From a virus (taxonomy: Duplodnaviria > Caudoviricetes): a DNA stretch of 31,303 nucleotides. Under the pieces are notes generated by a model. The model saw only the letters and a program-made list of their open reading frames with translations. It ran no database searches and had not been told where the DNA came from. The first letter of the stretch is position 1. Each line of letters starts with the position of its first letter. Below, piece after piece: positions 360 to 30,702 of this stretch. A program made the position numbers and the translations under genes. Location: positions 1-31,303 of IMG/VR virus record IMGVR_UViG_3300033076_001480. The stretch is one strand, 5' to 3'.

Positions 360-385
360 AACTTCGGCTCATTTGAGCCGAAGTT
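360..385. repeat. 26-bp palindromic site, copy 1
   Basis: AACTTCGGCTCATTTGAGCCGAAGTT, perfect 12-2-12; 3 bp after the integrase stop. Confidence 0.95.
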
Positions 386-388: not shown

Positions 389-1435
389 TTACCCCTCCTG
401 CTCCGCGATCCGAACCAGCAGATCCAGATCGATTGACGAGCCGTACCGACTGGTCATCTCCAGCGAATCGTGCCCCAGCGCCACCCGCGCGCCGTCCAGC
501 CCGTGATTCCTGCCGACCCGGTTCTTGGCCTCGTGCCTCAACAGGTAGGGGTGGAACCCCGTGATGCCGGCTCTTGCGGCGGCCTCGGAGACGCAGGCGG
601 GATAGGTCTGGTTGGTGTAGGGTTTGCCGTAGCGATTGAGGAATACATGACCGGCAGCGGGAAGGTGCGGTTCGAGGACACGCCGAGCCTTCGGTCCGAT
701 GCCGACGACCCGCTGGTGCCCCCGCCAAGCGTTCTTGTGATTCTTGATCCGCCAGATCCAGGTCTGTTGCGTGCGGTCGATCTCCTCGACCTGCATGCCG
801 CAGATCTCCCCGGTTCTGGCGCCGGTCCAGTATTGCACCAAGAGCATCGCCCGCACCGCCGGGCCGGCTTGACGGCAGACGGTCGCAAGATCCTGCCAGC
901 TGCAACCCTCACGCTTCGGGGTCGGCTCGAAGCGTCGGTCGTTGGGTGCCAACGGTTCGATCTCCCGCAGTGCCGACCAGATCCCGTGCGGCAGCAAGCC
1001 GGCCTGCGACGCGCGGCGGAACAGGGTGCGGATTCGGGAAGTGCGGCGAGCGACGGCGACCAGCGACAGCCCCTGGTCGATCATCCGATCCCGAACGACG
1101 GTCAGTTCTCGAGGGGAGAAGTCACGCCCCCGCATCGGCCCGTAGAGTGTGGCCAGCAGGGTGAGGGGGATCCGGTACTGCTTGGCGTTGTCGGTGGTGT
1201 AGCGTTTGCCGGCCTCGCCCAGGAACCAATCGACCAACTGCTTGATCGTGTGGTCGGCTCTGAGCGGACCCACGTCGGCAAAGGGCCGGTCCAGCCCCAG
1301 CCGTTTGATCAATTCGTCGTAGTTCTTCTGCGCCGTCTCGGAGCCGAACGGCCCGAGGTAGTAATCCTTGTCGCGGACCCGGATTCTGGCCTGGCCGCTC
1401 TTGCGGTGGTGAAAGATTGTCGGTAACTTCTTCAC
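389..1435 (-). CDS. int: Tyrosine recombinase / phage integrase
   Basis: TGAR (Arg I), YLLRH (HxxR with H>Y), LGH, MTSRY (catalytic Tyr); N-terminal HRKSGQARIR..DYYLGPFGS; GTG at 1435 with GGAGGT RBS preferred over the ORF-track start at 1555. Confidence 0.92.
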   Translation of the reverse strand: MKKLPTIFHHRKSGQARIRVRDKDYYLGPFGSETAQKNYDELIKRLGLDRPFADVGPLRADHTIKQLVDWFLGEAGKRYTTDNAKQYRIPLTLLATLYGPMRGRDFSPRELTVVRDRMIDQGLSLVAVARRTSRIRTLFRRASQAGLLPHGIWSALREIEPLAPNDRRFEPTPKREGCSWQDLATVCRQAGPAVRAMLLVQYWTGARTGEICGMQVEEIDRTQQTWIWRIKNHKNAWRGHQRVVGIGPKARRVLEPHLPAAGHVFLNRYGKPYTNQTYPACVSEAAARAGITGFHPYLLRHEAKNRVGRNHGLDGARVALGHDSLEMTSRYGSSIDLDLLVRIAEQEG

Positions 1436-1615
1436 TCGAACCTCCGGTACTCGAAAGTACCCGAGCCTTACTCGGGTACGGGCACGGCAACAAGCGAATG
1501 GATTTCCGTTGCCGAGCCGAGCAAATGACGGAACCGATGTGTCGCCATGAGACACGTCCGGGGTGAGTGATACCCGAAGAACGGCGCAGGGAAAAGTGGA
1601 CGGAAGGTCACCAAC

Positions 1616-1645: not shown

Positions 1646-1648
1646 CGG

Positions 1649-2047: not shown

Positions 2048-2069
2048 GATCTTGTCTTTTCTGTTGCAA

Positions 2070-2103
2070 AGCAAGAACCCCGGTGGTTGCCGGGGTTCTT
2101 GCT
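2070..2103 (-). terminator. Terminator-like hairpin
   Basis: 14-bp stem AGCAAGAACCCCGG/CCGGGGTTCTTGCT downstream of the stop at 2119. Confidence 0.6.
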
Positions 2104-2118
2104 GTTTCATGGCTGGTT

Positions 2119-2310: not shown

Positions 2311-2319
2311 ATCCTCCGA

Positions 2320-2961: not shown

Positions 2962-3022
2962 GACTGTCTTCCTCTCGGTTGAAACAACACCGGGGATACG
3001 CTCTCCCCGGCGCCGGAATTAC

Positions 3023-3048
3023 AACTTCGGCTCAAATGAGCCGAAGTT
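3023..3048. repeat. 26-bp site, copy 2
   Basis: AACTTCGGCTCAAATGAGCCGAAGTT; overlaps the stop of 3048-3563. Confidence 0.95.
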
Positions 3049-3563: not shown

Positions 3564-3584
3564 TTCGTTTCTCCCGACGGTTGC

Positions 3585-3610
3585 AACTTCGGCTCAAATG
3601 AGCCGAAGTT
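3585..3610. repeat. 26-bp site, copy 3
   Basis: AACTTCGGCTCAAATGAGCCGAAGTT. Confidence 0.95.
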
Positions 3611-3630
3611 CTTTCTGTCTGAACGCGACA

Positions 3631-3837
3631 TCAACTCAGAATGAACACATCCTCGCCGCGAAGATATCGACGAGCGTCGGTCAGGGTGAGGATCTCGCAC
3701 ACAAAAGCCCACCCCTCGCCGTCCCATTCGCCGACCGCCCAGGATTTTCGGTTGCCGGCGGTTCGGCTCCAGTGTGTTACGCGAAACTTGCCGTCCGGGG
3801 TTTCGTACACCCCGGAGGCTATTCGTTTCAACTTCAC
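3631..3837 (-). CDS. Small hypothetical protein
   Basis: VKLKRIASGVYETPDGKFRV...; GTGA overlap with the upstream stop. Confidence 0.6.
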   Translation of the reverse strand: MKLKRIASGVYETPDGKFRVTHWSRTAGNRKSWAVGEWDGEGWAFVCEILTLTDARRYLRGEDVFILS

Positions 3838-4313
3838 ACCCCCACCAGCCGTAAAACTTCCCGAATCCGGACTGTGCGGTCGGACTGGTCGAGCAGTACA
3901 GTGCATCGCAGGGCACGCCCGTAGGCTACCGGAACGTCCACCGTGCCACGCAGTACGATTCGGGATCGATCCTCGGTGCTGATCTCGTCCGGTCCGTGGA
4001 TGCCCAACTCGCCCCACGGGATGCGAGTCTTCTCGTCGGCCGGCTTGCTCGCCTCGTCATGAACGCGAGCGTTGCGGTCGTCCAGTTCGGCGGCTTCTCG
4101 CGTGTTCCGCTCGTGCAGTTCGGCCGCCGCTCGGAAGTCGTCCCGCAACTGATCCTCCCACCCCTCGAGCGGATGGCCGACGGGATATCGCGGCGTCTCG
4201 ATCAACTTGCGGATGCTGCCCTGATACCGCCTCTGGAGGAACGCCACACTTACTTCGTCGTCATCCCCGAAACGGACGGTCAGGTGCCGGTCTTTGCTTG
4301 TGTATACGGTCAT
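3834..4313 (-). CDS. Hypothetical phage protein
   Basis: 159 aa, GGAG RBS directly after copy 4. Confidence 0.7.
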   Translation of the reverse strand: MTVYTSKDRHLTVRFGDDDEVSVAFLQRRYQGSIRKLIETPRYPVGHPLEGWEDQLRDDFRAAAELHERNTREAAELDDRNARVHDEASKPADEKTRIPWGELGIHGPDEISTEDRSRIVLRGTVDVPVAYGRALRCTVLLDQSDRTVRIREVLRLVGV

Positions 4314-4325
4314 GGTTGCTTCTCC

Positions 4326-4351
4326 AACTTCGGCTCATTTGGTACAAAGTC
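4326..4351. repeat. 26-bp site, copy 4
   Basis: AACTTCGGCTCATTTGGTACAAAGTC; overlaps the stop of 4350-4646. Confidence 0.95.
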
Positions 4352-4646
4352 AATCGGCCTGCTCGCGCCGAGCGGACGCGAACCCCAACAGAATCATGTC
4401 ACGGGTGCATTGCCAGTCTTGCATCCACGCAAACCGGATGGTTTCTCCGGACCGGCAATCGGCATACTGCAGCAGTAGATCCAGAGCGATGCGTGCGATC
4501 GACTCGCACTTCGGAGCCGGAACGGAATCGGTGCCGGTCCACAAAGCCCGGATACGATGCATCTTCCAATCACTCGGATTCTTGTTGTCCATGATGTGAT
4601 GCGTCGCGCGCACCACATCGGCCATCTGCTCTTCGGTCAGGGGCAC
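4350..4646 (-). CDS. Hypothetical protein
   Basis: 98 aa, overlaps its neighbour in the operon. Confidence 0.6.
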   Translation of the reverse strand: MPLTEEQMADVVRATHHIMDNKNPSDWKMHRIRALWTGTDSVPAPKCESIARIALDLLLQYADCRSGETIRFAWMQDWQCTRDMILLGFASARREQAD

Positions 4647-5161
4647 AGGATCACCTTGCCTTTCCGCACATCCCAGGCGAGATTGCCGACCACCAGGTCG
4701 GCCTCCTCGTCCCGGCCGAGATCACGCAACTTGTCGGCTGCAATCAACTGGCACTCGCCCGTATCCTGAATCGACTGCTGCTCGATGAGAGCCTCCAACA
4801 GGAGACGGTCTACCTCCGATTCCCCCAGGCCGGAGAACAGCCGAACGACGGTTCCCCAATCGTCCTCGCCGGGCAGGATGTACTCGTCCGACGGGTTGGA
4901 ATTCCACTGGTCGCAAGCGTAAATCCATTCCTTGCTGCTGATCCGGTAAACGACCCGTTCGGCATACCAACCGTATGCCGTGAAACTGGTATTCAGCGCG
5001 GCGCCGGTCACATACTTGCCCAGCCGCGGGCACAAGTATGCTGTCAGTTCCGAAACCATGGCCAACTTTCGCGAAACCCAACGACCGGACGCACTACTGA
5101 ACAATGCCAGTTTCGTCAGGTGCGGCTTGAACTTCGGTTTGCTCTTGCGTTTGGTCTTCAT
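4637..5161 (-). CDS. Hypothetical protein with a C-terminal TIGR02996-like motif
   Basis: ATG at 5161 with AGGAG RBS; QLIAADKLRDLGRDEEADLV. Confidence 0.65.
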   Translation of the reverse strand: MKTKRKSKPKFKPHLTKLALFSSASGRWVSRKLAMVSELTAYLCPRLGKYVTGAALNTSFTAYGWYAERVVYRISSKEWIYACDQWNSNPSDEYILPGEDDWGTVVRLFSGLGESEVDRLLLEALIEQQSIQDTGECQLIAADKLRDLGRDEEADLVVGNLAWDVRKGKVILCP

Positions 5162-5172
5162 CGTCGCGTCTC

Positions 5173-5625
5173 CTAATAGCCCATCCACTGACGGGCCGTC
5201 TTGCATTCGACCACTTCCCACGAGTAGGTGTTGTTCCAGTCGCTTTCGGTCGGCTCGTAACCGGCCTGGATCGTATGGTGGTAGATCGACAACTCGAGGT
5301 TGTCGTCGTCGGCACGATAAGAGGCGATTTCCTCGCATTCCTCTTCGGCCCCCTCGATGTCGTCATGCCACTTGGCCTGCACCAAGTCGTCGGCGCTGAC
5401 CAGCGTACCGCCGTGATCGACGGACGCGGTCACGCGGTACTTCACCCACTCGCGCTTGACCGTGAACTGCTCGTGGATCGGATCCCCCTCGCGCACGCAC
5501 TCGGATTCGTCGTCGAAACCCGCATCGGCCAAGGCGTCGGCCACGATGTCGCGTGGCGTATCCTCGGGAAATCGCAATCCCCCGATCACCACGGCAATCC
5601 CGATCTTGTTATCCTCGGTTGTCAT
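5173..5625 (-). CDS. Acidic hypothetical protein with a TIGR02996-like motif
   Basis: EDTPRDIVADALADAGFDDESECVR; ATGA-coupled to the HTH gene. Confidence 0.65.
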   Translation of the reverse strand: MTTEDNKIGIAVVIGGLRFPEDTPRDIVADALADAGFDDESECVREGDPIHEQFTVKREWVKYRVTASVDHGGTLVSADDLVQAKWHDDIEGAEEECEEIASYRADDDNLELSIYHHTIQAGYEPTESDWNNTYSWEVVECKTARQWMGY

Positions 5626-5840
5626 CGCCGTTTCTCCCCCAACAGTTCGCCTACGGTCGTCATGAGCGCATCGGCAATGGCGGCCAGGCTATCGACGCGC
5701 GGGGCACGTTCCCCGGCCTCGATTTGGGATACCGTGGTCGATCCCACCCCCGCCGCTCGGGCGAGGTCGCGAACCGACCACCCCTTACGCTCCCGCGCCG
5801 CCCTGACCGTCTCCGCCAATCGCTTCGTGTCCATCGCCAT
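5622..5840 (-). CDS. XRE/Cro-family helix-turn-helix transcriptional regulator
   Basis: VRAARERKGWSVRDLARAAGVGSTTVSQIEAGERAPRVDSLAAIADAL is a classic HTH_3 pattern; ATG at 5840 with AGGGGG RBS. Confidence 0.9.
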   Translation of the reverse strand: MAMDTKRLAETVRAARERKGWSVRDLARAAGVGSTTVSQIEAGERAPRVDSLAAIADALMTTVGELLGEKRR

Positions 5841-5876
5841 AAAGAACCCCCTTTCAGCCGAAAACGGAACATGACG

Positions 5877-5904
5877 AGCATACCACGTCCCGTTTTCGGT
5901 GCAA
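5877..5904 (-). promoter_or_regulatory. Putative sigma70 promoter for the HTH operon
   Basis: Minus strand TTGCAC-N16-TATGCT with an extended TG; lies over the IR CCGAAAACGG..CCGTTTTCGG and next to copy 5. Confidence 0.45.
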
Positions 5905-5907
5905 GTC

Positions 5908-5933
5908 AACTTCGGCTCAAATGAACCGAAGTT
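5908..5933. repeat. 26-bp site, copy 5
   Basis: AACTTCGGCTCAAATGAACCGAAGTT. Confidence 0.95.
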
Positions 5934-5972
5934 GGGATGATCCCCCGGAATCGATGGTGTCTTGTCTGCTCT

Positions 5973-6012
5973 ATCCTACGCCGTGGAATCGGAATGTCAA
6001 CACCGATTCCAC
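5973..6012 (-). promoter_or_regulatory. Putative promoter with an operator-like inverted repeat
   Basis: Minus strand TTGACA-N16-TAGGAT; perfect IR GTGGAATCGG-N10-CCGATTCCAC straddles the -35. Confidence 0.5.
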
Positions 6013-6063
6013 AGATTTATTCAGGGGGAATTGTGATCGGCTGGCCCGTCGAGGCAGGAAGGA

Positions 6064-6831
6064 TCAGAATGGGACGGGATCGGAAGAGGTGGTGCCGGGC
6101 CAGCCGGGGGGATCGGCAGAGAACGGGGTCGGCGGCTGGCCCGTACAGGCAAGAATCAGACGGAGGCGAATCTCACCGAGTGCCCACGCCCGAACCGTGG
6201 CAACGGAGAGGGGGAATCGCTCCCGACGCAGCTGGCGGGAGATCTGCCGGTCCGAATATCCGCCCGCGCGTAGCTCGAGGATCCGGGATCCCCAGCGGCG
6301 CTGCGATTCGTTGACGGTCCATCCTTTGAGCGAATGCAGGTTGAACCCGTATCCGACCGGATAGTTTACCCTGTAGGCGCTGGTCTGGCCCGTCTCTGCT
6401 AAACGCATGCGCGCCACGCGCGCGATGCGTTTCCTTTGCTTGCCGATCTCTACCGTGTCCAGGATCCCTTGCAACCTGGCATGGCCGATAGGATCGGCCG
6501 AATCGATCCCGTCACGAACGGCAATCAACCGGATCCGGTCCCGATCGATCTGGCGCAGGAGGTTGACCAGATCGGCAGTACCGGACGATAGCTCGGCGAG
6601 GAACCGAACGGCCAAGCAATCACCGGGACGCCACTGACGGACGATCCGTCCACAACCCGGACGCAAGCGCCAATCGGTCGATGCCGTGGTTCCGGGATGC
6701 ACCAACAGACCGGACCATACGTTGTGTCTCGCCGTTGTGCCTGCAATGTGATCTCGGATCAACCGCTCTACTTCCTCGCGATTCTCACGGTTCACAATGG
6801 CGTAGCAGTACAGGCGGCGCGGAGCAAGCAT
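6064..6831 (-). CDS. Serine recombinase (resolvase/invertase)-like protein, catalytic residues degenerate
   Basis: YCYAIVN in place of YxRVS; RPG..RPGDCLAVRFLAELSS in place of GDxLVVxxLDRLxR; IAVRDGIDSADPIG; YPVGYGF; C-terminal HTH RILELRAGGYSDRQISRQL..SVATVR. Confidence 0.75.
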   Translation of the reverse strand: MLAPRRLYCYAIVNRENREEVERLIRDHIAGTTARHNVWSGLLVHPGTTASTDWRLRPGCGRIVRQWRPGDCLAVRFLAELSSGTADLVNLLRQIDRDRIRLIAVRDGIDSADPIGHARLQGILDTVEIGKQRKRIARVARMRLAETGQTSAYRVNYPVGYGFNLHSLKGWTVNESQRRWGSRILELRAGGYSDRQISRQLRRERFPLSVATVRAWALGEIRLRLILACTGQPPTPFSADPPGWPGTTSSDPVPF

Positions 6832-6855
6832 GGTTCGATCCCGAGTGAATCGACT

Positions 6856-6881
6856 AACTTCGGTTCAAATGATCCGAAGTT
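6856..6881. repeat. 26-bp site, copy 6
   Basis: AACTTCGGTTCAAATGATCCGAAGTT; 24 bp upstream of the recombinase-like ATG. Confidence 0.95.
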
Positions 6882-6921
6882 GTCAACGCACTCGGGATTG
6901 TAGCTTGCCTGGAGGAACGAG

Positions 6922-6951
6922 AAAACCCTGCAGGCGCTTGCCTGCAGGGTT
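6922..6951 (-). terminator. Rho-independent terminator
   Basis: AACCCTGCAGGC-gctt-GCCTGCAGGGTT with a T run on the minus strand. Confidence 0.7.
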
Positions 6952-6957
6952 GAACGG

Positions 6958-7227
6958 TCAGAATCCGGCAGCGCCCGTTGTGTCCATTCCCAGGTCGCTC
7001 ATCAGGTGGTAGACTCGGTTGGCAGCGTAGTTCGGATGTTCCCAGATACCCTCCTCTTTCAGTTTTTCGACCGACAGCAATTCTGTCAGTCTCACCGATG
7101 TCGGCCGTTCATCGATCCGGATGTAGAGATCGTCCAAGTAATCAACCACGGTCGGCGCCGACTTTTGGTAGTGTCGGCATGCTTCTGTGATCAGTAATCG
7201 AATCGATTCCAGTGCGTCGAACATCAT
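6958..7227 (-). CDS. Hypothetical protein
   Basis: 89 aa, GGAG RBS. Confidence 0.6.
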   Translation of the reverse strand: MMFDALESIRLLITEACRHYQKSAPTVVDYLDDLYIRIDERPTSVRLTELLSVEKLKEEGIWEHPNYAANRVYHLMSDLGMDTTGAAGF

Positions 7228-7281
7228 AGGTAATCTCCGGTTGATCTCCCCTAAATTCCAGGGGAGAAGGGTAAGGAATAA

Positions 7282-8052
7282 TCAAACGGTCGGCAGCGGC
7301 ACGCGCTTGCCTTCCCGTTTCTTGTCGGCTGCTTTCCCGTATCCGTACTCTCCCGCCTTCCGAAGTACCTGGATTGCTTTTGCTGCAGCCGTTCCGCTGG
7401 GCTGGGTGCCGTGAATCAACAGAGCAAACCGTTGCGTCGAACCGTAGGCGTGGGAATCATCGTGATCGATCGGCAAGCCCTTGTCCTCTGCTTCCTTTTC
7501 GGACAAGACGACTTCGGCGGTTCGCCAACCGCGGAGAACGGCCAGTTCATCAAACTTCGACCCCAACGAGAACACCCAACGGAAGTTGGGCGGAAACGAA
7601 TCGATCCGGTCGAAGTGTTCGCCGCTCTTGGTGTAGCAGTAGAACACCAAGTCCGGCCGCGCACGCGCGGCGCCGATCCAGGCTTTCAGGTAGGACAGGC
7701 TGAAGAAATCGCCGCTAGCGTGGATCCGCACACGTTTGGTGTTTCGCGTGCGGACCGCGTCGATCGACGCGACAATCAATGCTGTCGTTTTGGCCACCCC
7801 GGTCCGAAGTGTCGCTTTGATCATGTCCAGGTTGTACCAATGCGCTTCCCGCGCTTGGGAATAACGCTCATCCGATGCCGCAAAGCATCGGAATTGCGTG
7901 TCCGGTCCGTCCGTCACTTTGCCTGTCTCCCGCGATGCTTTCGACAGGCACAAGGAAGCTCCCGGACATGTCCAGCCCGCGGGGAGATAGATCACGAGCG
8001 TATCGCGCTCGAGTTTTCCGTTTCCGATAGACAACTTCAAAAGGCTATTCAT
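7282..8052 (-). CDS. Phage gp88-like protein (Cys-containing, radical-SAM-like fold)
   Basis: GNGKL, LPAGWTCPGASLC..CFA, RIHASGDFFS, FYCYTKS motifs typical of the GP88 family. Confidence 0.75.
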   Translation of the reverse strand: MNSLLKLSIGNGKLERDTLVIYLPAGWTCPGASLCLSKASRETGKVTDGPDTQFRCFAASDERYSQAREAHWYNLDMIKATLRTGVAKTTALIVASIDAVRTRNTKRVRIHASGDFFSLSYLKAWIGAARARPDLVFYCYTKSGEHFDRIDSFPPNFRWVFSLGSKFDELAVLRGWRTAEVVLSEKEAEDKGLPIDHDDSHAYGSTQRFALLIHGTQPSGTAAAKAIQVLRKAGEYGYGKAADKKREGKRVPLPTV

Positions 8053-8094
8053 GATGATTGCTCCGTTTTCGGTACACTGTTTGCGTGAAGAGAC

Positions 8095-8120
8095 AACTTC
8101 GGTTCAAATGAGCCGAAGTT
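8095..8120. repeat. 26-bp site, copy 7
   Basis: AACTTCGGTTCAAATGAGCCGAAGTT. Confidence 0.95.
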
Positions 8121-8200
8121 GTTCGGGTTGATCGGATCGAGGATGCCGAACGTGATCCGTTCGGCAACCCACACAATCGCAGCTGTGATGACGATCGTGG

Positions 8201-8698
8201 TCATTCCTTCACCGACAACGGGAAGAACGCGGCGAGGAGTCGAACGGCGATCTCGTGAGACTTCGCTACGTTCGTTTCCGGCGCGAGAATCGACCACGGT
8301 CCGATTGTTGTCCTTCGGACCGCGGTGAGCGGAGCGTAGCAGGTCACGTTGTTGAACGTGACCGCGGTCACTGTGAATTCAATCGTTCGCTCGGTGAAGC
8401 AAACATGCAGTACCGTTCGGTACTTCCGCCAGTGTTCCGGGTAGTCGGTGTGGATCGGACGCAAGATCCGCTGACGCGCGAGCCGACCGATAACCCGGCA
8501 GCGCGTATGACTGAATTGCTGGGATCCCATCTCCCGCGCACGTTGAACGAGGTCGGTCACTTGGACGGTGATCCGCCAGCGGGTAGATTCTTCGTCCCGA
8601 CCCTGTTCCTCGAGGTAGTCGGCGAAGATCAGGGCCGCGGTTCGATCCTTCCGAGCGGCGCGGAGAAGGGCGGATTCTTCTTTGTGTGTTGCGTTCAT
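8201..8698 (-). CDS. TIGR02996-like domain protein
   Basis: N-terminal EESALLRAARKDRTAALIFADYLEEQGRDEESTRWR. Confidence 0.75.
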   Translation of the reverse strand: MNATHKEESALLRAARKDRTAALIFADYLEEQGRDEESTRWRITVQVTDLVQRAREMGSQQFSHTRCRVIGRLARQRILRPIHTDYPEHWRKYRTVLHVCFTERTIEFTVTAVTFNNVTCYAPLTAVRRTTIGPWSILAPETNVAKSHEIAVRLLAAFFPLSVKE

Positions 8699-9081
8699 GC
8701 CATCACCTTTTCAGTCATGCTGTCCAACTTGTCAACCATGTTCCACGCAAGCCAGGCGAGCGTATAGGTCTGGCGCTCGAGGCTGTAATGCTCGATCGTG
8801 TAATCGTGGTTGATCCATTCGCCACGAACGTACCAAGAGCCGATCACATCATCGTTGTGACGAATCGCGGAGAACCATACTTCGCCATCCGGCGAAGCGT
8901 ATCGGGCGGACTCGTTCGCCCATGCCGATTCGCATGCCTCTGCGACCATTGGAACGAGTCTCCACCATTTCGCGTGCTTCTCCTCGCCGCGCTCCTCGCA
9001 GTAGTCGGCCACGATGTGGCAGGCGGTCACATCGGCGCCCACTAACCATCCGTCGATCAATCGCAATCGTTCCCTGTCCAT
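8695..9081 (-). CDS. TIGR02996-like domain protein
   Basis: ADVTACHIVADYCEERGEEKHAKWWR; ATG at 9081; first gene after the promoter. Confidence 0.65.
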   Translation of the reverse strand: MDRERLRLIDGWLVGADVTACHIVADYCEERGEEKHAKWWRLVPMVAEACESAWANESARYASPDGEVWFSAIRHNDDVIGSWYVRGEWINHDYTIEHYSLERQTYTLAWLAWNMVDKLDSMTEKVMA

Positions 9082-9120
9082 TGTGCTGTTCCCTTTCAGG
9101 TGCAGAGCAGACAAATAGAA

Positions 9121-9175
9121 GAGGGGAACCGTTCCCCTCGATCGCAATCATAGTATCGCGTGCGTTGCGTGTCAA
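9121..9175 (-). promoter_or_regulatory. Near-consensus leftward (early) promoter with a downstream inverted repeat
   Basis: Minus strand TTGACA (9175-9170)-N17-TATGAT (9152-9147); IR GAGGGGAAC-C-GTTCCCCTC at 9121-9139. Confidence 0.7.
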
Positions 9176-9759
9176 TGCACAAATTCCACAGACTCCGGGA
9201 TTGCTCTGTTTCCAGGTAGGGAATCGTTCCCTCATTCTTCTATCCGCGCGCGTGAGACTCGGCGCCGGATCGGGATGGACGAGGGGAACAGGGGGGGACA
9301 GGATACCGTCTACTGTTCGCTCTGTTGGTTGCTCGTGAACAGGTAGAGGAACAAACAGTACAGGCAGGAACAGGGAACCACGAGTACGGAACGGAACACT
9401 GACCACGGGACAGATGGGGTGGTCTTGTGCTGTGGTCAGTGTTCCGTTGTCGGAGCGGATCGGGATATGCCATCGACCCCTACTCCTCTCCTCTCTGTCC
9501 TTCCCCTGTTCACGAACCACGAACAGGGAACGCCTACTCTCTACTCGTGAACACTGCATCGCAGTAGTGTCGGCACTGCTCACGAGCCGTGAGCCGCGGT
9601 TCGGTGCCAGGTACTGGTGTACAGTGGACGGCCGTCCCGGTCCGGACCCGGTGGGGGGCTGGCCCCCGCGTGGCGTGTGGGGATGGTGATATCCCTCCCG
9701 TGGATTTTTTCTCCAATCGAACCGGCCTCTCCAGACCTCCCGCAGCCTGCCACCGAACC

Positions 9760-9785
9760 AACTTCGGCTCATTTGATCCGAAGTT
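9760..9785. repeat. 26-bp site, copy 8
   Basis: AACTTCGGCTCATTTGATCCGAAGTT; upstream of the late arm. Confidence 0.95.
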
Positions 9786-9898
9786 GCATGATGTCCGGTA
9801 AGGGGTGGTTATCGGTATCTCGGAAAAGGCGAGATGTATAGTGATGGCTGATATTGCGTGATTTTGACGCAAATGCGGGTCGGGAAGCGGGGGGAAGG

Positions 9899-10969: not shown

Positions 10970-10973
10970 GAAT

Positions 10974-10999
10974 AACTTCGGCTCAAATGAGCCGAAGTC
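10974..10999. repeat. 26-bp site, copy 9
   Basis: AACTTCGGCTCAAATGAGCCGAAGTC; 4 bp after the scaffold stop. Confidence 0.95.
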
Positions 11000-12936: not shown

Positions 12937-12962
12937 AACTTCGGCTCATTTGATACAAAGTG
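12937..12962. repeat. 26-bp site, copy 10
   Basis: AACTTCGGCTCATTTGATACAAAGTG. Confidence 0.95.
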
Positions 12963-16064: not shown

Positions 16065-16090
16065 AACTTCGGCTCAAATGAGCCGAAGTT
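16065..16090. repeat. 26-bp site, copy 11
   Basis: AACTTCGGCTCAAATGAGCCGAAGTT. Confidence 0.95.
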
Positions 16091-16998: not shown

Positions 16999-17024
16999 AA
17001 CTTCGGCTCATTTGGTACAAAGTC
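16999..17024. repeat. 26-bp site, copy 12
   Basis: AACTTCGGCTCATTTGGTACAAAGTC. Confidence 0.95.
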
Positions 17025-17426: not shown

Positions 17427-19173
17427 AGCGGTCGTGGCGCCGGCCGCCGAGCCGCCGCACGGCCAGCCGAAACTGCCGACCGGCAACCCTACCGAGGATC
17501 TGCTCTCGCTACTCCAAGAACCATCAGGCGTCGAACTGCTCGACGAGGCGATGCGGTTCGGCCGCGACTGGCTTGATGCCGTCACGGCTATTCGCGCTCG
17601 TGAACTGTCGGCCGAGCGAGCCAAGAGAAGGCGGGCGGCGTTGCGTGTCTACGAGCCGCTGGAGACGCAGAAGGAGTTTCACGCCTCGCGGGCGCCGACG
17701 GCGCTGATCCGCGGCTCCAACCGATCGGGCAAGACGCTGGCGGCAGCGGTCGAGGTCGCTCGGGCGGTAACCGGTCAGGATCCGCACAAGAAGTATCCCG
17801 AAAGGGACGGCATCTGCTTTGCTGTCGGCAAGGATCTCAAGCATATCGGTCAGGTCATGTGGCGGAAGTTGGCCCGCCCCGGTGCGATTCGCGTTATCAA
17901 GGACGGCTCGGGAGCGTGGAGAGCCTGGCGTCCCTGGATCCCGGAGGATCTGGCGAGGAAGGCGGAAACCCGGCCCTCGCCGCCGCTGATTCCGGCGCGG
18001 ATGATCAAGGAGGTGGCCTGGGAGAACAAGAAGGAGCAGATCCCGGTCCTGGTGCGACTGACCAACGGCTGGGAGATTCACTTCTTCTCGAGTCTCGGCA
18101 AGCCGCCGCAGGGGTCGGCCATCGATCTGTGGTGGTTCGACGAGGAAATCGTCGATCCGGAATGGTTCCCGGAACTTTCCGGTCGCGTGCTGGACCGGCG
18201 CGGAAGAGGGATCTGGTCGGCTACTCCGCAGGCGGGCACCGATCAGTTGTTCGAGTTGCACGAGAAGGCCGAGAAGGAACGGCTGCACAAGCCGAAGGAA
18301 GAGCGGCTGGTCGAGGAGTTCGTTGCGCTGCTCTCGGACAACCCGCACATCGGGGAGAAAGAGAAGCAGATCTTCGAGGAGATGCTCGACGACGAGGGCA
18401 AGCGGGTCCGCATCGGCGGCGACTTTGCACTGTTGGGGTACAAGATCTACCCGCAGTTCAACATGTCGATTCACGGCATCCGGGATACGATGCCCGATCG
18501 CAACTGGTGCTACTACGCCTACGTCGATCCCGGCCATTCGGTCTGCGCCGTTCTCTTTGTGGCTATTCCGCCGCCGGATCTGCCGAGCATGAACCTGCTC
18601 TACGACGAGCTTTACATTCCCGAGTGCAACGCCTGGAAGTTCGCCGATGCCATGAAGCACAAGACCGAGGGCATCTGCTTTCAGGAGTTCGTCATGGATC
18701 GCCACATGGCCATCCATACGGAGTTGGGCATCGGCAAGACGGTCATGCAGCAGTACAGCGAGGAGCTTGCCAAGCGGGGTGTCAAAAGCGTGGCGACCGT
18801 CTCTTCGTTCCGGCTGGCCTCCGACAACATCGAAGCCGGCATCATGGCGGTTCAGGGGCTGTTGCGGATCCGCGACGACGGCACGCCGAAACTGCGGGTG
18901 GCTTACGACCGACTGCCCAACTTCGAGTACGAGATCCGGCGTTATCACCGCAAGCGGGTCGGTGGCGTCATTACCGACAAGCCCGATGCCAAGCGAAGCA
19001 ACCACCTGATGGACAACCTGCGGTACATGGCGATGCACGATCCGCGCTGGATCCAGCCTCCCCACAACCGCAAATCGCTGACGGGTGCCCGGCTCTATGT
19101 AAAGCAGAAACAGGATCGGAAGCGAAAGCGAAACGGTGAATCGGGCGGGGTCAATTTCGGACCGGGAAATTGA
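17389..19173 (+). CDS. terL: Terminase large subunit
   Basis: Walker A GSNRSGKT, Walker B WWFDEE, coupling motif SATP, nuclease YVDPG and HLMDNLRY. Confidence 0.92.
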   Translation: MPRKKKTPGITPEAVVAPAAEPPHGQPKLPTGNPTEDLLSLLQEPSGVELLDEAMRFGRDWLDAVTAIRARELSAERAKRRRAALRVYEPLETQKEFHASRAPTALIRGSNRSGKTLAAAVEVARAVTGQDPHKKYPERDGICFAVGKDLKHIGQVMWRKLARPGAIRVIKDGSGAWRAWRPWIPEDLARKAETRPSPPLIPARMIKEVAWENKKEQIPVLVRLTNGWEIHFFSSLGKPPQGSAIDLWWFDEEIVDPEWFPELSGRVLDRRGRGIWSATPQAGTDQLFELHEKAEKERLHKPKEERLVEEFVALLSDNPHIGEKEKQIFEEMLDDEGKRVRIGGDFALLGYKIYPQFNMSIHGIRDTMPDRNWCYYAYVDPGHSVCAVLFVAIPPPDLPSMNLLYDELYIPECNAWKFADAMKHKTEGICFQEFVMDRHMAIHTELGIGKTVMQQYSEELAKRGVKSVATVSSFRLASDNIEAGIMAVQGLLRIRDDGTPKLRVAYDRLPNFEYEIRRYHRKRVGGVITDKPDAKRSNHLMDNLRYMAMHDPRWIQPPHNRKSLTGARLYVKQKQDRKRKRNGESGGVNFGPGN

Positions 19174-19197
19174 CTTCGGCTCAAATGAACCGAAGTT
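19172..19197. repeat. 26-bp site, copy 13
   Basis: GACTTCGGCTCAAATGAACCGAAGTT; overlaps the terL TGA. Confidence 0.95.
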
Positions 19198-19654: not shown

Positions 19655-19916
19655 CACCAACCAGACACCGTTGGCCGCGGTGGTGACGCGGGTCGGTTTC
19701 GACAGCCTGAACCTCAACATCTTCGCGCCCAACAGCGTGAACATGCTGATCCGCGACGGGGTGAGGCACAAGAGCGATCCGCGGAGTCGTTCCGATGACA
19801 TGCGGGAGAGCGGTTGCTGGGAGTATCCCGAGTGCGAACCGAAACCCGAAGAGCCGAAGATCAAGGAGTTCGAGGACGAACGCAAGATCGTTCGCTCGGA
19901 ACGGGTGGCCAAGTAA
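19605..19916 (+). CDS. Hypothetical phage protein
   Basis: KPKIGQIVWW..PLAAVVTRV..LNLNIF..GCWEYP; SH3-like small beta protein. Confidence 0.6.
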   Translation: MSKPKIGQIVWWYPQGDTNQTPLAAVVTRVGFDSLNLNIFAPNSVNMLIRDGVRHKSDPRSRSDDMRESGCWEYPECEPKPEEPKIKEFEDERKIVRSERVAK

Positions 19917-19940
19917 CTTCGGCTCATTTGATACGAAGTG
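19915..19940. repeat. 26-bp site, copy 14
   Basis: AACTTCGGCTCATTTGATACGAAGTG; fills the gap between a TAA and the portal RBS. Confidence 0.95.
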
Positions 19941-19950: not shown

Positions 19951-21885
19951 ATGAGCGATGCACTGCGGTCGATCACCGGCGCCTGGATGAAGAAGATCCG
20001 GCTGGCCATCGACTGGAAGGCCAAGGAGTTTCAGGACGACGCCGACGAGTGCATGCGCTTTTTCGACGGTCCTTATGATTGGCTGTACCAGGGCTGGCGA
20101 CAGGGCGGCTCGCGCGGCTTCGATTGGGGCGAAGGCGACGACAATCCGTTGCCTTCTCCCTCCTCGCGCATGACTGTCAACAAAGTGGCCGAACTGGTTC
20201 AACTCTTCGGACCGGCGCTCTACCACAGAAACCCGGTCCGCAAGGTGATCCCCCGCAAGATCGTCGAGCCGGTTCCCGAACTGTTCGGCGACGTGAATAC
20301 CGATCCGAACGCCGCCATGATGTTCCAGCAGGCGATGAGTACCGCCGGCCAGCAGATCATGGCGGATGCGCTGCGGGCCGATCTCCTCGAGAAATATCTG
20401 GGCTACACGCCGGCCGCTCTGGACTTGAAGGAAGAAGCCAGGTCGGCGATCGACGAGGCGTTGATCAAGGGGGCGGGTTGTCTGTGGACGGGCAAGTATT
20501 CACCGGAAGGAAGCCGGGGATCGTTCGCCGGCACCTTCTTCGATTCGGTGGACAATCTGGTTCTCGATCCCGACGCCAACAAGATGCGGGATGTCCGCTG
20601 GATCGCCCGCAAGCACACGCATCCGGCCTGGTACGTCGAACGACTCTTCGGTCTGGCGCCGGATACCTTCCGCGGCTTCGCCCATCAGGAGTCGTACACC
20701 CGGCAGTCGGAGACGGCCGATCGGGACGGCGATTGGAAACGACGTCAGGGGCAGACGGCCGATCTGGTGGTCTATTGGGAGATCTGGTCGCGGATGGGGC
20801 TGGGCGGTCGGCTTTCGGGAATCCCCAACGAGGATCGACAGAAGTTCGATACGCTCGGCGACTATGTTCGGCTGGTGATTACCGACACCATTCCATGGCC
20901 GCTCAATCTGCCGCCTCCCTTGTGCGATCTGCTCACCCAGCAGCAGGAGATGGTGCCGGCCGACGTGATGGGGCAGATCACCCAGCGGATGACCTGGGAT
21001 ACCCCGTATTGGGCCGATGACAGCTGGCCGGTTACGCTGATCAAGTTCCACAACCGGCCCGGCAAATTGTGGCCGATGAGCCATATGAAGCCGGGTATGG
21101 GGGAACTCAAGTTTCTCAACTGGGCGTGGAGCTTCCTGGCCAACAAGGTGAAGATCGCCACTCGGGACTTTCTGGCCATCGCCAAGAGTGCCGGTGAGGA
21201 ACTCAAGGAGCGAATCAAGCACGGCGCGGATTACACGATCATCGAGATCGAGGCGATCCACGGCAGCATCGACAAGGTAGTTCAGTTCCTCCAGTATCCC
21301 GGCTTCAACCCCGAGATCTGGAAGGTGATCGAAGGGGTAACCCTCAACTTCGAGCGCCGGGTCGGATTGACGGAGTTGATCTACGGCTTGTCGTCCCGCC
21401 AGATGCGGTCGGCTCAGGAAGCCAGCATCAAATCCGATGCGATCAGCGTTCGGCCCGACGAGATGGCCAACCGGGTCGAGGATGCCATGACGGAGGTGGC
21501 TCGCAAGGAGGCGTTCGCCGCCCGCTGGCATCTGCGGGGGCCGGATGTCGAACGGGTTCTGGGACCGCTGGGCGCTCAGGTCTGGGAGCAGGTGATGGTC
21601 ACCTCCGATCCCGGCGCCGTTTTGCATCAGTTGGAATACCGCATCGAGGCCAACTCCGCTCGGAAGCCGAACAAGGCGGCCGATCAGGAGAAGATGAAGG
21701 AAGCGATGCAGAATCTGTTCCAGCCGATCCTGCAGTATTCGATGTCCTCGGGCGATGTCAATCCGATCAACGCCCTGATGCGCGATTGGGCCAAGAGTAT
21801 CGACCTGGAAGCCGAGGCGTACCTGTTCCAGCCGCCGCCTCCGCCACCGATGCCGGCCGGTCCGCAACAAGCACCGCCTGCTTGA
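19951..21885 (+). CDS. Portal protein
   Basis: 644 aa downstream of terL; MTVNKV..L, DEALIKGAG, GLTELIYG..SAQEA motifs and Pro/Gln tail resemble P22/T7-like portals. Confidence 0.75.
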   Translation: MSDALRSITGAWMKKIRLAIDWKAKEFQDDADECMRFFDGPYDWLYQGWRQGGSRGFDWGEGDDNPLPSPSSRMTVNKVAELVQLFGPALYHRNPVRKVIPRKIVEPVPELFGDVNTDPNAAMMFQQAMSTAGQQIMADALRADLLEKYLGYTPAALDLKEEARSAIDEALIKGAGCLWTGKYSPEGSRGSFAGTFFDSVDNLVLDPDANKMRDVRWIARKHTHPAWYVERLFGLAPDTFRGFAHQESYTRQSETADRDGDWKRRQGQTADLVVYWEIWSRMGLGGRLSGIPNEDRQKFDTLGDYVRLVITDTIPWPLNLPPPLCDLLTQQQEMVPADVMGQITQRMTWDTPYWADDSWPVTLIKFHNRPGKLWPMSHMKPGMGELKFLNWAWSFLANKVKIATRDFLAIAKSAGEELKERIKHGADYTIIEIEAIHGSIDKVVQFLQYPGFNPEIWKVIEGVTLNFERRVGLTELIYGLSSRQMRSAQEASIKSDAISVRPDEMANRVEDAMTEVARKEAFAARWHLRGPDVERVLGPLGAQVWEQVMVTSDPGAVLHQLEYRIEANSARKPNKAADQEKMKEAMQNLFQPILQYSMSSGDVNPINALMRDWAKSIDLEAEAYLFQPPPPPPMPAGPQQAPPA

Positions 21886-21910
21886 ACTTCGGCTCATTTG
21901 ATACGAAGTG
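21885..21910. repeat. 26-bp site, copy 15
   Basis: AACTTCGGCTCATTTGATACGAAGTG; overlaps the portal TGA. Confidence 0.95.
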
Positions 21911-22788: not shown

Positions 22789-23325
22789 ATGGAGTGGCCG
22801 GTAATCAGCAACCATCCCGAGATCCAGCAGGCTTACGAGGGGATGCGCCGAAAGGGCGAGTCGCACCGGATGGCCGAAATGCTGGCTCTCCAGTGCCCTC
22901 CGATGTCGGACACCGACCGGGAATTTCTGGAGGGCCACTGTAACGGCAACCAGTTCGAGAAGACCTTGGGACTCGGCAACTATTACGGGCGGGTGGCCAA
23001 GGAGCAAGGGTTCAGCACTACCGGAAAGGTATATCTTTCCGGCCTGGCACGCTACCCCGGTGACCCGGAAGCCTGGGTTTCCGGAAAGGGTGACGTGAAA
23101 CGTGTGATCGAGCAACGCGGCTGGTCATGCCGGGGAGCGGTCAACATCAAGGGCGAGGTGAAGCCGCCGAGCGGCGGGGGAATCGCCTCGAGCCTGGTCA
23201 CCGAGAAGGTGGCCGAGATGGTCGAGCAGCAACCGGAACTGGCGAGGCGGCCGGTCGAGGAGTTGCGGGAGCGGGTGGTCGATCGCTTCGCCCCGCCGGA
23301 AGCCAAGCGGGAGATCGAAGGGTAA
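22789..23325 (+). CDS. Hypothetical phage protein
   Basis: ATG at 22789 with AGGAG RBS. Confidence 0.65.
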   Translation: MEWPVISNHPEIQQAYEGMRRKGESHRMAEMLALQCPPMSDTDREFLEGHCNGNQFEKTLGLGNYYGRVAKEQGFSTTGKVYLSGLARYPGDPEAWVSGKGDVKRVIEQRGWSCRGAVNIKGEVKPPSGGGIASSLVTEKVAEMVEQQPELARRPVEELRERVVDRFAPPEAKREIEG

Positions 23326-23349
23326 CTTCGGCTCATTTGATACAAAGTC
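23324..23349. repeat. 26-bp site, copy 16
   Basis: AACTTCGGCTCATTTGATACAAAGTC; overlaps a TAA. Confidence 0.95.
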
Positions 23350-25097: not shown

Positions 25098-25123
25098 AAC
25101 TTCGGCTCATTTGATACAAAGTC
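25098..25123. repeat. 26-bp site, copy 17
   Basis: AACTTCGGCTCATTTGATACAAAGTC. Confidence 0.95.
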
Positions 25124-26722: not shown

Positions 26723-27646
26723 GTGTCTTTCGGCGCCGTTTCGGAACTTCCGGTATCGTCGATCCCGTTTGTCGATTCCGCCGCGCGGATCGCGATGCGG
26801 CGGATCGGCTCGTCGGTACGTTCCGAAACGCCCGTCCGCGGCGACAGCGCAAGACGGTATCTGCCGCCACCGACGGCTACGTTCGAGCGGTTGGCCGAGC
26901 GGCGGATCGTCCGGACGGCCGACGATACCATCGACAAGCAACCCGGCAAGGTACGGCGGACCGGATCGGTATCGGTGCCGGTCAACTTCTGCCGACCGAC
27001 GCCGCACCGCAAGAGTCGCAAGCAATTCCACAGGCCGCTGCCGCCGGCTTGTGAAGGGTTCCTGATCCCTGTTCTGCAGACGATCAGGAGAACCGCCAAG
27101 GGGGACGGTCGGGAGGCATGGTGGCTGCCTCTCGGCCGGACCCTGAGGTGGGGCGAGATGCGGCAACCCGAGCCGTCGGCCGCGCTGACTCAGAGTCGGA
27201 GCCGCCACAAGGCCGCCTGCCCCCAACCCGAACCTTACCCCGGTGACGCTTTCCGAACCCGCGCTCCGGGACAGGAAGAGGAGATCGGCGGGCAGGCGGT
27301 CCTGGCGGGCCGGCGAACAACGGTCGGCGACCAGCCGCTGGCCGAGGCGAGGAACAGCCGAACCCGACGGCGGGTGCCGCTCTTCTACGAGCCGCCCCAG
27401 GTGCAGACCGGCCGGCGACTCTCTGTGTGCCAGGTGATGCCGACCAACTTCCAGGGATCGGCCAGGCGGGGCAGACTGTGGAATACGGGATTGTCGGCCG
27501 ACGGCTCCGGGGAAACCTGTCCGCCGCGACCGATCCGGCCGGTCGAGCAGGATGACTATCGACCGGGGGCGGGGCAGGCCGAGGACAGTCGGCCGATCCG
27601 GTCGGAAGGCGACGACTATCGTCCGGGACGCCGGGACGAGTGCTGA
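26723..27646 (+). CDS. Hypothetical Arg/Pro-rich protein
   Basis: GAGG RBS, stop overlaps copy 18; C-terminal RPIR..DDYRPG duplication. Confidence 0.5.
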   Translation: MSFGAVSELPVSSIPFVDSAARIAMRRIGSSVRSETPVRGDSARRYLPPPTATFERLAERRIVRTADDTIDKQPGKVRRTGSVSVPVNFCRPTPHRKSRKQFHRPLPPACEGFLIPVLQTIRRTAKGDGREAWWLPLGRTLRWGEMRQPEPSAALTQSRSRHKAACPQPEPYPGDAFRTRAPGQEEEIGGQAVLAGRRTTVGDQPLAEARNSRTRRRVPLFYEPPQVQTGRRLSVCQVMPTNFQGSARRGRLWNTGLSADGSGETCPPRPIRPVEQDDYRPGAGQAEDSRPIRSEGDDYRPGRRDEC

Positions 27647-27670
27647 CTTTGTATCAAATGAGCCGAAGTT
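27645..27670. repeat. 26-bp site, copy 18 (inverted)
   Basis: GACTTTGTATCAAATGAGCCGAAGTT is the exact reverse complement of copies 16, 17 and 19. Confidence 0.95.
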
Positions 27671-27679: not shown

Positions 27680-28840
27680 ATGGCGTCGATCCAAGTAGCG
27701 ACCTGGAAAGATCTGGTCGATCACCTGATGGACTTCCTCGGCGCGCATCCCGGCGGCGAGGCGAGACGCGATGCGCGGCGGTCGATCTTCAACTCGATGC
27801 GCGAACTGACCACGGGCCACAACTGGTCGTACTACTACCGCCAGGGACGCATCGTCACTTCGGCGCCGTATCTGACGGGCACGGTGAGTTACGACCACAC
27901 GGGGGGAACCTACGAGCGGCTGGTGACCCTGACGGGAGGCTCGTTCCCGGCATGGGCGGCTCAGGGGCGCATCCTGATCGGAACAACCATCTACGAGGTG
28001 GCCGACCGCAAATCGGCGACGGAGATCACGCTGGCCATCCACAGTAATCCGGGAGCCGATGTCGCTTCGACCAGTTACACCCTCTACCGGGACGCCTATC
28101 CGTTGCCGGTCGATTGCCGATCGATCGGCATGATGATCATCGACAACTTCACGACCGACATCACCTTCGAGCATCCCTCCAGTATGCTCTCGCGGCAGCG
28201 GGTCTGGCGTGGTACGGCAACGCCGCGGTTTTACTCGGTTCTCGGTAGTCCCGACTTTTTGGGCACTCTGCAGTTGGGCGTCTTCCCGCCGCCGGATCAG
28301 GCATACGGCTTGTCGTTCGTCTACCAGCGACGGCCGAGGCAGTTGGCGGTCGAGGATCACCACCAGGGCAAGATCTCGACGACCGCCGGCTCCGCATCGG
28401 TGACCGGCTCGGGGACGGCTTTTACGAGCAAGTTGCAGGGTAGCGTCCTGCGGATCTCGCAAACCGCCGAACTGCCGACGGCTCCCTGGGGCAGCAATCC
28501 GCCCGCGGTCAGCCGTATCGTGGTAGCGGTCAACAGTGCCACGTCGCTGACGCTCGATGATACCGTTTCCGAGACGATGACCAATGTGCCCTACCTGATC
28601 TCCGATCCGGTGGACATCGAAGACGGCGCCATGATGACGGCGCTTCTGCGGTGTTGCGAGCGGCAGATGGGGGTGGCTCGCAGCAAGGAAGATCGTCAGA
28701 TCCTCGAGAAGGCGTGGATCGACGCATTGATCCTGGCGCGCGAGGCCGACAGTCGGAGCTTCAAGGACGAGAACGTCGGCGGCCAGCAGCGGTGGCCTTA
28801 TCGGCTGGCCAACTTCCCGCTGGGCGGCGATCGCTCGTAA
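27680..28840 (+). CDS. Putative head-tail adaptor protein with inserted beta domains
   Basis: Helical N-terminus (HNWSYY), YPLPVDC, VFPPPDQAY..YQR, helical C-terminus; GSASVTGSGTAFT insert. Confidence 0.55.
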   Translation: MASIQVATWKDLVDHLMDFLGAHPGGEARRDARRSIFNSMRELTTGHNWSYYYRQGRIVTSAPYLTGTVSYDHTGGTYERLVTLTGGSFPAWAAQGRILIGTTIYEVADRKSATEITLAIHSNPGADVASTSYTLYRDAYPLPVDCRSIGMMIIDNFTTDITFEHPSSMLSRQRVWRGTATPRFYSVLGSPDFLGTLQLGVFPPPDQAYGLSFVYQRRPRQLAVEDHHQGKISTTAGSASVTGSGTAFTSKLQGSVLRISQTAELPTAPWGSNPPAVSRIVVAVNSATSLTLDDTVSETMTNVPYLISDPVDIEDGAMMTALLRCCERQMGVARSKEDRQILEKAWIDALILAREADSRSFKDENVGGQQRWPYRLANFPLGGDRS

Positions 28841-28864
28841 CTTCGGCTCATTTGATACAAAGTC
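28839..28864. repeat. 26-bp site, copy 19
   Basis: AACTTCGGCTCATTTGATACAAAGTC; overlaps a TAA. Confidence 0.95.
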
Positions 28865-30478: not shown

Positions 30479-30678
30479 GACGTTGGCTGATCCCGAGCCT
30501 GGCGGTCCGGCTGACTGCCAGAAACCATCCGATGCCGCCGGAAGTCTTCCGATCCTGTCGGAACCGGAGCTTCACGGCACTCGACGGCTTGCAGGAAACC
30601 ATCGAGCAGACTGCCGTGTTCAGTCAGACCGCCAGGACACCCGGCGGTCCGTTGGCGACTTCGAGATACCGCAGGTAA
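30475..30678 (+). CDS. Small hypothetical protein
   Basis: ATGA coupling; stop overlaps copy 20. Confidence 0.5.
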   Translation: MRRWLIPSLAVRLTARNHPMPPEVFRSCRNRSFTALDGLQETIEQTAVFSQTARTPGGPLATSRYRR

Positions 30679-30702
30679 CTTCGGCTCATTTGATACAAAG
30701 TT
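30677..30702. repeat. 26-bp site, copy 20
   Basis: AACTTCGGCTCATTTGATACAAAGTT. Confidence 0.95.

Follow-up and report, generated by a model that had tools for sequence, protein, structure and literature searches.

The locus considered here raises the question of whether a phage serine recombinase that appears to have lost its catalytic residues now serves as the binding protein of a genome-wide array of palindromes laid out like invertase crossover sites. Both features, the dead recombinase and the site array, are real and far from chance; a connection between them is a reasonable hypothesis, for which the other recombinase superfamily offers a precedent.

The window, which is the whole stretch of DNA analyzed, makes up record G000 entirely and is a virus fragment of 31,303 bases. 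Its gene products include a tyrosine integrase, proteins of the XRE type and of the GP88 family, the major head protein (11055-12152) and a large terminase (17287-19173), and there are portal-, adaptor- and tail-like genes as well; the genes are directed leftward to the left of approximately 9.8 kb and rightward elsewhere. A search with the major head protein recovered 21 related records, and the terminase used as search bait found nothing. Complete relatives measure 56-70 kb, so approximately half of the phage genome lies outside the window. Because an integrase is present, the phage would probably be temperate. Also recorded in the window were a papain-like peptidase match among the head genes (15250-16059), slightly below the Pfam cut-off, a late gene (29053-29565) with an FCCH-domain and tail-like match, and a stretch between the leftward and rightward arms (9180-9760) that is probably a non-coding control region; it contains several inverted repeats and is possibly an origin or switch region.

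A serine recombinase fold and its catalytic residues

6064..6831, minus strand: serine-recombinase-fold protein of 255 aa (Pfam, alignment and structure model)

The sequence-only reading had assigned this ORF to the resolvase/invertase pattern, and the assignment was borne out by the Pfam Resolvase family (PF00239, 27.6 bits against a cut-off of 23.3), by alignment with gamma-delta resolvase and by fold matches. In a fold search with the structure model (pLDDT 82, built on 15 sequences), ranks 1-15 of 48,161 chains were serine recombinases; the best match was TP901-1 (Z 14.7, rmsd 2.5, 126 aligned), and gamma-delta resolvase scored Z 11.8. The E-helix region had been described as intact, and the model does contain a long E helix at residues 114-153, which together with the catalytic-domain fold places the protein in the serine recombinase superfamily.

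The motif loss is as claimed. The first motif reads YAIVN against YxRxS, and the second reads AELSS against DRxxR, standing opposite DRLGR in the gamma-delta alignment. The columns of Arg8, Ser10, Asp67, Arg68 and Arg71 hold I, N, A, E and S, respectively, where the Arg8/Ser10 stretch was aligned through MAFFT and fold overlap and the profile match begins only at residue 43. None of the residues expected of an active serine recombinase (Ser10 and Arg8; Asp67, Arg68 and Arg71) is present. A displaced catalytic serine within the first motif was considered and rejected. R, S, R and R of the two motifs are kept in 52 of 61 dereplicated homologue rows, which were drawn from 106 profile hits and whose viral members were fetched by patterns demanding the active-site motif. 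The S10A substitution alone is reported to abolish catalysis in Tn3 resolvase (10.1101/2021.12.07.471667). Since the catalytic residues are lost and this one substitution suffices in Tn3 resolvase, the protein is very probably catalytically inactive.

The claim of an intact C-terminal helix-turn-helix (HTH) held in part. An HTH was predicted and confidently folded: the C-terminal part starts with the P-x-G motif common to phage resolvases, the domain (residues 154-235) is basic (pI 11.5), and the model shows a beta-hairpin and a three-helix HTH with a core pLDDT above 90. A Hin-type HTH was not established, because large serine integrases aligned across 79-84 residues (Z 5.3-6.1) and Tn3 resolvase across 46 (Z 5.2), all at Z 5-6. 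These scores lie below those of unrelated HTH proteins (Z 7), and the Pfam search returned no HTH_7 match in the ORF. In the model the C-terminal HTH looks more like the minimal recombinase domain of large integrases than like that of Hin, and its type is uncertain.

We also considered whether the gene is maintained. A full-length homologue, P0002 (29% identity, E 1.4e-15), lacks the same catalytic residues and has the same distinctive C-terminal tail; the two proteins paired with a support of 98 in a quick tree, on long branches. P0002 sits on a 2482-bp contig, for which no viral locus was found. A single-sequence search of 5.8 billion proteins revealed no close homologue of the ORF, and a search with a profile of the pair returned P0002 only, with none among 518 shorter candidates.

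A second allele was provided by run X1, which contains 96% of the sampled words of the window and may be the sample from which it came. Over positions 1-20,000, X1 differed from the window at 11 bases, nine of which were inside the recombinase ORF (6196-6537, with an uncovered gap at 6232-6268). Seven codons were changed, five of them synonymously; counted per base, 5 to 7 of the 9 changes were synonymous against 26% expected (P 0.06 to 0.002), in evidence that consists of two contigs at a depth of approximately 7. A patch that came from a diverged allele is the best explanation of these differences. The open reading frame, the dead full-length homologue and the mostly synonymous allele variation agree with the view of the gene as dead but maintained. 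Recent pseudogene decay was rejected on account of that homologue and the second allele, and on this comparison the ORF is probably not decaying.

The array of 26-bp sites

The sites are listed below by position.

360..385: site 1, perfect arms, 3 bp past the integrase stop
3023..3048: site 2, perfect arms
3585..3610: site 3, perfect arms, terminator-like score
4326..4351: site 4, broken arms, ATG 12 nt on
5908..5933: site 5, between a sigma-70-like promoter match approximately 40 bp before it and the XRE gene 68 bp on
6856..6881: site 6, in the leader of the dead recombinase
8095..8120: site 7
9760..9785: site 8, within the divergent control region
10974..10999: site 9, in the gap that separates the major head gene from a probable scaffold gene
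12937..12962: site 10, broken arms, ATG 9 nt on
16065..16090: site 11, perfect arms, ATG 17 nt on
16999..17024: site 12, broken arms, start 9 nt on
19172..19197: site 13, overlaps the terminase stop codon, ATG 13 nt on
19915..19940: site 14, broken arms, portal-like gene 10 nt on
21885..21910: site 15, broken arms, start 9 nt on
23324..23349: site 16, broken arms, start 9 nt on
25098..25123: site 17, broken arms, start 11 nt on
27645..27670: site 18, broken arms, flipped, start 9 nt on
28839..28864: site 19, broken arms, start 10 nt on
30677..30702: site 20, broken arms, start 11 nt on

Twenty sites of 12-2-12 layout had been described, and twenty copies were found, every core being AA or TT. 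The layout is that of hix/gix sites (26 bp, two 12-bp inverted arms and a 2-bp core). The hixL site itself has 12-bp arms and an AA core. The family carries approximately 46 bits, with 19 of the 26 positions invariant and positions 11-17 invariant in all 20 copies; on the sense strand the core is TT in 13 sites and AA in 7. The sites are intergenic: 19 of the 20 overlap at most two coding bases, against 8% of positions expected to do so under a gene list with a coding fraction of 0.90 that was drawn partly with the sites in view. The coding overlap of the twentieth is explained by a gene start placed too early, and several sites provide the last bases of the upstream stop codon.

As had been reported, copy 6 lies 24 bp upstream of the recombinase ATG and copy 5 lies 130 bp downstream of its stop codon. 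The recombinase is hence bracketed by two sites, but the arrangement is undistinctive, with 5 of the 19 inter-site intervals holding one gene.

The absence of strand exchange between sites, which the earlier reading had expected, was also supported. The sites have not visibly recombined, because gene order is the same as in repeat-less relatives although 12 of the 19 neighbouring pairs are inverted. Sites 5 and 6 around the recombinase gene are in direct orientation by core, and there are 20 sites, not one inverted pair. Run X1 contains four site-to-site joints, none with more than 34 nt on its short side and all at a depth like that of the genome (contigs drop rare variants); they were read as other copies and not accepted as recombinants. 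Three loose ends in X1 fall at site positions and do not occur in the window, which implies further site copies outside it; two of them have an ATG shortly after.

The 26-mer was found in no stretch of the viral collections, as 2 single copies in unrelated settings in metagenomes and as 12 single copies in genomes. A looser pattern gave 39 stretches, all single-copy, with no second array carrier and no host site family. Relatives carry the same late genes in the same order without the sites, so the array is lineage-specific.

The sites could be traces left by gene conversion or by a small copying element and retained only where they do no harm; they would then need no binder, and the recombinase gene would be a relic. 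Near-identical copies do form subfamilies, relatives have the same genes without sites, and 46 bits would exceed what a repressor needs. The window, however, holds no lone half-sites with 0-1 mismatch and no decayed copies, breakage of the arms follows the distance to the start codon (below), and a relic gene is at odds with the open frame, the homologue and the allele variation described above. We consider this origin improbable as a full account.

Arm breakage was examined against the positions of start codons. The ten sites with a start codon 9-12 nt on all show 3-5 mismatches between their arms, with folding energies of -0.8 to -8.4 kcal/mol, whereas the other ten have 0-2 mismatches (-10.8 to -17.5 kcal/mol) and lie at least 13 nt from a start or have none near. 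The association was strong (Fisher P 1e-5; late genes alone, P 0.005), with a 12-nt cut-off that is post hoc and with site copies that share descent and are not independent. In two of the ten broken-arm sites the orientation is flipped and the perfect arm touches the ribosome-binding site; this suggests that loss of pairing is what counts, not a single module of arm plus ribosome-binding site. The simplest reading of these sequences is that the site is needed as double-stranded DNA and that the hairpin is counter-selected where it would hinder translation. This link of broken hairpins to start codons is a new observation here.

6838..6898: extended inverted repeat around site 6, with outer 10-bp arms at 6838-6847 and 6889-6898

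Action of the sites as RNA hairpins, in processing, termination or translational control, is suggested by the perfect copies, which fold at -17.5 kcal/mol, by the terminator-like site 3, and by the extended repeat at site 6, which as RNA forms a single long leader hairpin of -38.6 kcal/mol that ends 6 nt short of the recombinase ATG. In the related phage G016, which is complete (below), A and T runs flank the sites of another palindrome family and resemble two-way terminators. Against this, half of the copies carry pairing-breaking changes, uncompensated and in both orientations, sequence is kept where structure is not, and Rfam gave no match in the window or in six loci. An RNA role for the array as a whole is highly improbable. 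The 26-mers are probably a DNA-level protein-binding array of the phage, to judge from how their sequence is conserved. Site 6 shows the opposite tendency to the broken-arm sites, and its leader hairpin would keep the dead recombinase scarce.

Candidate binders of the array

Our tentative working proposal is that the 26-mers would form a genome-wide array for a dimeric phage protein and that this protein may be the dead serine recombinase. The recombinase would form dimers by way of the catalytic-domain fold and the E helix; the two basic HTH domains would each read one 13-bp half of the 26-mer, and the bound dimer could not cut. Bound dimers would act as transcription roadblocks between genes, possibly also bridging sites, and would keep the prophage quiet; site 6, in the leader of the recombinase gene, would allow autoregulation. 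Site copies may have spread through copying or gene conversion, tolerated, under this proposal, because nothing recombines them. In the earlier reading the sites might, in addition, be copies of the recombinase's own former crossover site.

The 26-bp site divides into two 13-bp halves, which matches the 13-bp contact area described for the recombinase domain of a serine integrase (PMC3783163). Resolvase dimers are also reported to occupy non-crossover sites, the spacers of which differ by 3 bp, and S10A subunits function there (10.1101/2021.12.07.471667). The recombinase domain is described as reading only 3 bp directly (PMC3783163), which is too few to explain 46 bits and argues against the recombinase as binder, as does the long hairpin that site 6 retains near the gene's own start.

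5973..6000, minus strand: sigma-70-like promoter match, 10/12
9147..9175, minus strand: sigma-70-like promoter, the best of 1-13200 at 11/12, before the leftward genes, with no 26-bp site on it

A role as master operator is disfavoured by the best early promoter being siteless and by the count of sites near a promoter match: 1 of 20 (site 5) has one of at least 9/12 within 80 nt, for sigma-70-like promoters only. Since a good sigma-70-like promoter lies near site 5 alone and the top-scoring early promoter is siteless, the array suits a roadblock or bridging mode better than occlusion of promoters. An overlap of site 5 with the -35 hexamer was rejected, the spacing being 21.

5622..5840, minus strand: XRE/Cro-type HTH protein of 72 aa, rival binder candidate
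5858..5899: second, unrelated inverted repeat before the XRE gene, with 10-bp arms CCGAAAACGG

It is comparably possible that another phage protein, either the 72-aa XRE protein or the product of a gene in the missing half, binds the array and that the dead recombinase serves some other, non-catalytic purpose, such as binding a few sites of its own or a protein partner. Site 5 lies 68 bp from the XRE gene, and with complete relatives of 56-70 kb and approximately half of the genome missing, the true binder may be out of view. The XRE gene, however, is preceded by a different inverted repeat; a third exact CCGAAAACGG copy lies at 8063-8072, before the GP88-family gene, and this repeat is a candidate XRE operator. 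In addition, the related phages G016 and G017 have arrays and contain no HTH_3 protein. With a binder other than the recombinase, the 12-2-12 layout would also be coincidental, as would the presence of a site in the leader of the recombinase gene.

389..1555, minus strand: tyrosine integrase (Pfam), true start probably near 1462, rival binder candidate

The integrase appears catalytically intact, with R, K, R, H and Y apparently present and the first His of HxxR reading Tyr; its N-terminus presumably resembles those of planctomycete phage integrases. The sites might be core-type sites of this enzyme, arranged as 10-6-10 or 11-6-11 about a 6-bp centre that does not vary, in which case site 1 would be in or near attP and the others would be silent bound copies. 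Site 1 starts 3 bp after the integrase stop codon, positions 11-17 are invariant in all 20 sites, and the outer arms may resemble loxP and lambda core-type arms. Twenty core sites and an active enzyme should nevertheless rearrange the genome, yet gene order matches that of relatives. The related integrase of G013 (27% identity) occurs without an array, and no homologue of the window integrase was found in G016, G017 or G022. Integrase binding is therefore distinctly improbable in our view.

Resolvases and palindromes in other phages bear on the recombinase and on its competitors alike. A seven-sequence profile matched resolvases in 8 of the 21 related records, and the resolvase gene of every carrier precedes the head gene by 1.5-21 kb. 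Catalytic motifs are intact in six (G004, G007, G016, G017 and the identical pair G020/G021) and altered like those of the window in two (G006 and G018), so that catalysis appears lost in 3 of 9 carriers including the window, counting carriers and not origins. In the quick tree the dead rows are long branches, which support neither one nor several origins of the dead state. The altered resolvase-like genes, L018:598-1473 (G006) and L144:1021-2046 (G018), lie shortly upstream of head genes. A separate clade (P0004, P0009 and P0016; support 100, quick tree) has repeated resolvase-like domains with altered catalytic motifs.

The expected co-occurrence of dead resolvases with dispersed palindromes fared unevenly: a trio of phages has arrays beside resolvases of one subclade, which are intact, but G006, G018 and G019 break the association. 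G006 and G018 have dead resolvase-like genes and no repeat family in 12 kb and 16 kb including the head genes. G019 (L134, L158 and L164) has a 17-bp palindrome, built around a 1-bp centre, in 8-10 copies, and no resolvase profile match in the 55% of the genome present. Dead resolvases without repeats and repeats without a detected resolvase, within the same phage group, favour another binder. No comparable array accompanies the intact resolvases of G004, G007, G020 and G021.

Within the trio, the complete related phage G016 contains 8 near-identical 33-bp palindromes with a GCTCA-TTA-TGA centre and a 3-bp core, G017 contains 8 copies of TTGTCA-N3-TGA(C/A) (C1:6223-57149), and G022 contains two TCA-N3-TGA palindromes (C1:37694 and 42250) on either side of its intact resolvase gene. 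The resolvases of the three phages form one subclade in the quick tree, and G022 otherwise shares little with the head-protein group. A scan of viral contigs with the G016/G022 pattern found, among the 80 stretches listed, multiple copies on those two contigs only. The resolvase is the sole left-arm protein of the window with similarity to G016, G017 and G022, and the similarity is weak (E 0.03); the three phages share two further proteins that are also possible binders of their palindromes. The 3-bp core implies that the geometry is not that of crossover, and since these arrays adjoin intact enzymes, loss of catalysis is not required for an array. The likeness of the trio palindromes to the window site amounts to approximately five bases and may be due to chance; the short GCTCA-N-TGA pattern, with 23 records, was too loose to inform.

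Several side observations were made in these phages. The G016 palindromes (L145-L148) lie, for example, at C1:7257, 16455, 16821, 22859, 43784, 49529, 56197 and 63565. The G022 palindromes enclose a 4.5-kb resolvase block within a module with helicase-like and methyltransferase-like genes (labels by inspection), which is shared with G016 and partly with G017 and G004. Upstream of early genes in L149:7800-12900 (G017) and L148:2200-3900 (G016) there is a short hairpin and then CTGATGAG, six times in the former and three in the latter; the combination may resemble part of a hammerhead core, and Rfam gave no match in L131 and L132. In L136:750-6700 (G021), six leftward early genes have TCTCCGGTGAA right before the ATG.

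The unrelated phages L076, L080 and L081 (positions 700-6600) contain dispersed TTTACTCT-N4-AGAGTAAA palindromes, several directly before ribosome-binding sites, with an intact resolvase 3.4 kb off. Their centres are uniform within each phage and different between phages, so a fixed core can arise by homogenisation. Such homogenised-centre palindromes, also present in Cluster O mycobacteriophages (PMC4351075), favour a binder other than the recombinase.

A wider reading, which goes beyond our working proposal and which we consider rather unlikely in full, is that the resolvase-like family of this virus group would consist mainly of regulators of dispersed TCA-N(2-3)-TGA palindromes that shed catalysis more than once. 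In this phage the dead recombinase would cover the intergenic sites, 20 or more in number, and would repress across the genome as a roadblock or by bridging. It would be a serine-fold counterpart of MrpR, with the site arms tuned against folding over ribosome-binding sites.

Should the recombinase prove not to bind, a strong repeat array and a recurrently inactivated phage resolvase family remain. If it does bind, it would provide a natural, cut-free serine-recombinase module for binding or bridging 26-bp sites and would point to a candidate class of binders for the dispersed palindromes that have long gone unexplained in phage genomes.

Comparison with known systems

The array resembles the stoperators of Cluster A phages (L5 gp71, Bxb1 gp69), which are reported as tens of intergenic sites across a temperate phage with a proposed block of elongation; those sites are 13 bp, asymmetric, oriented with transcription and bound by an HTH repressor, whereas the window sites are symmetric and occur in both orientations (PMC3029335). 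The 17-bp repeats of Cluster O mycobacteriophages are likewise dispersed palindromes with invariant arms and an A/T-run centre either way round. They differ in their 7-3-7 layout, in lying within genes in a third of cases, in being untied to start codons and in belonging to phages described as having no integrase (PMC4351075). Since these repeats, too, have a fixed A/T core that is present either way round, likeness to hix is weak evidence (PMC4351075).

With Hin/hix and Tn3/gamma-delta res the locus shares the catalytic-domain fold, the 26-bp length of hix and, for the resolvases, dimers that also occupy non-crossover sites; Hin/hix, however, has two sites and an active enzyme, against 20 or more sites and a dead enzyme in the window (PMC3798978, 10.1101/2021.12.07.471667). 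The system is not Hin/hix, because it has no active enzyme and no invertible pair. Large serine integrases share the N-terminal fold, a C-terminal beta-hairpin and HTH that align over approximately 80 residues, and the 13-bp contact area; the window protein, at 255 aa, is without the zinc-ribbon, the coiled-coil and the catalytic residues (PMC3783163). The literature searched, including the portion of PMC8987985 covered, offered no case of a natural, catalytically dead serine recombinase used as a phage repressor, which is weak evidence of absence.

The general idea of a recombinase turned repressor already has a precedent in SPbeta MrpR, which has a tyrosine-recombinase fold, has lost catalysis and is reported to repress through the dispersed element SPBRE (PMC10516654). 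Like MrpR (YopR) and SPBRE, the window combines a phage recombinase fold without catalytic residues, a repeated intergenic element found genome-wide and integration by another recombinase. In contrast to the 15-bp promoter motif and proven binding of MrpR, the window has a serine fold, 26-bp palindromes mostly inside operons and a candidate binder (PMC10516654). The window system is an analogue and not a member of the MrpR/SPBRE type, because the fold is another one and the sites are longer, symmetric and mostly inside operons. If the proposed binding is true, both recombinase superfamilies would independently have become phage repressors.
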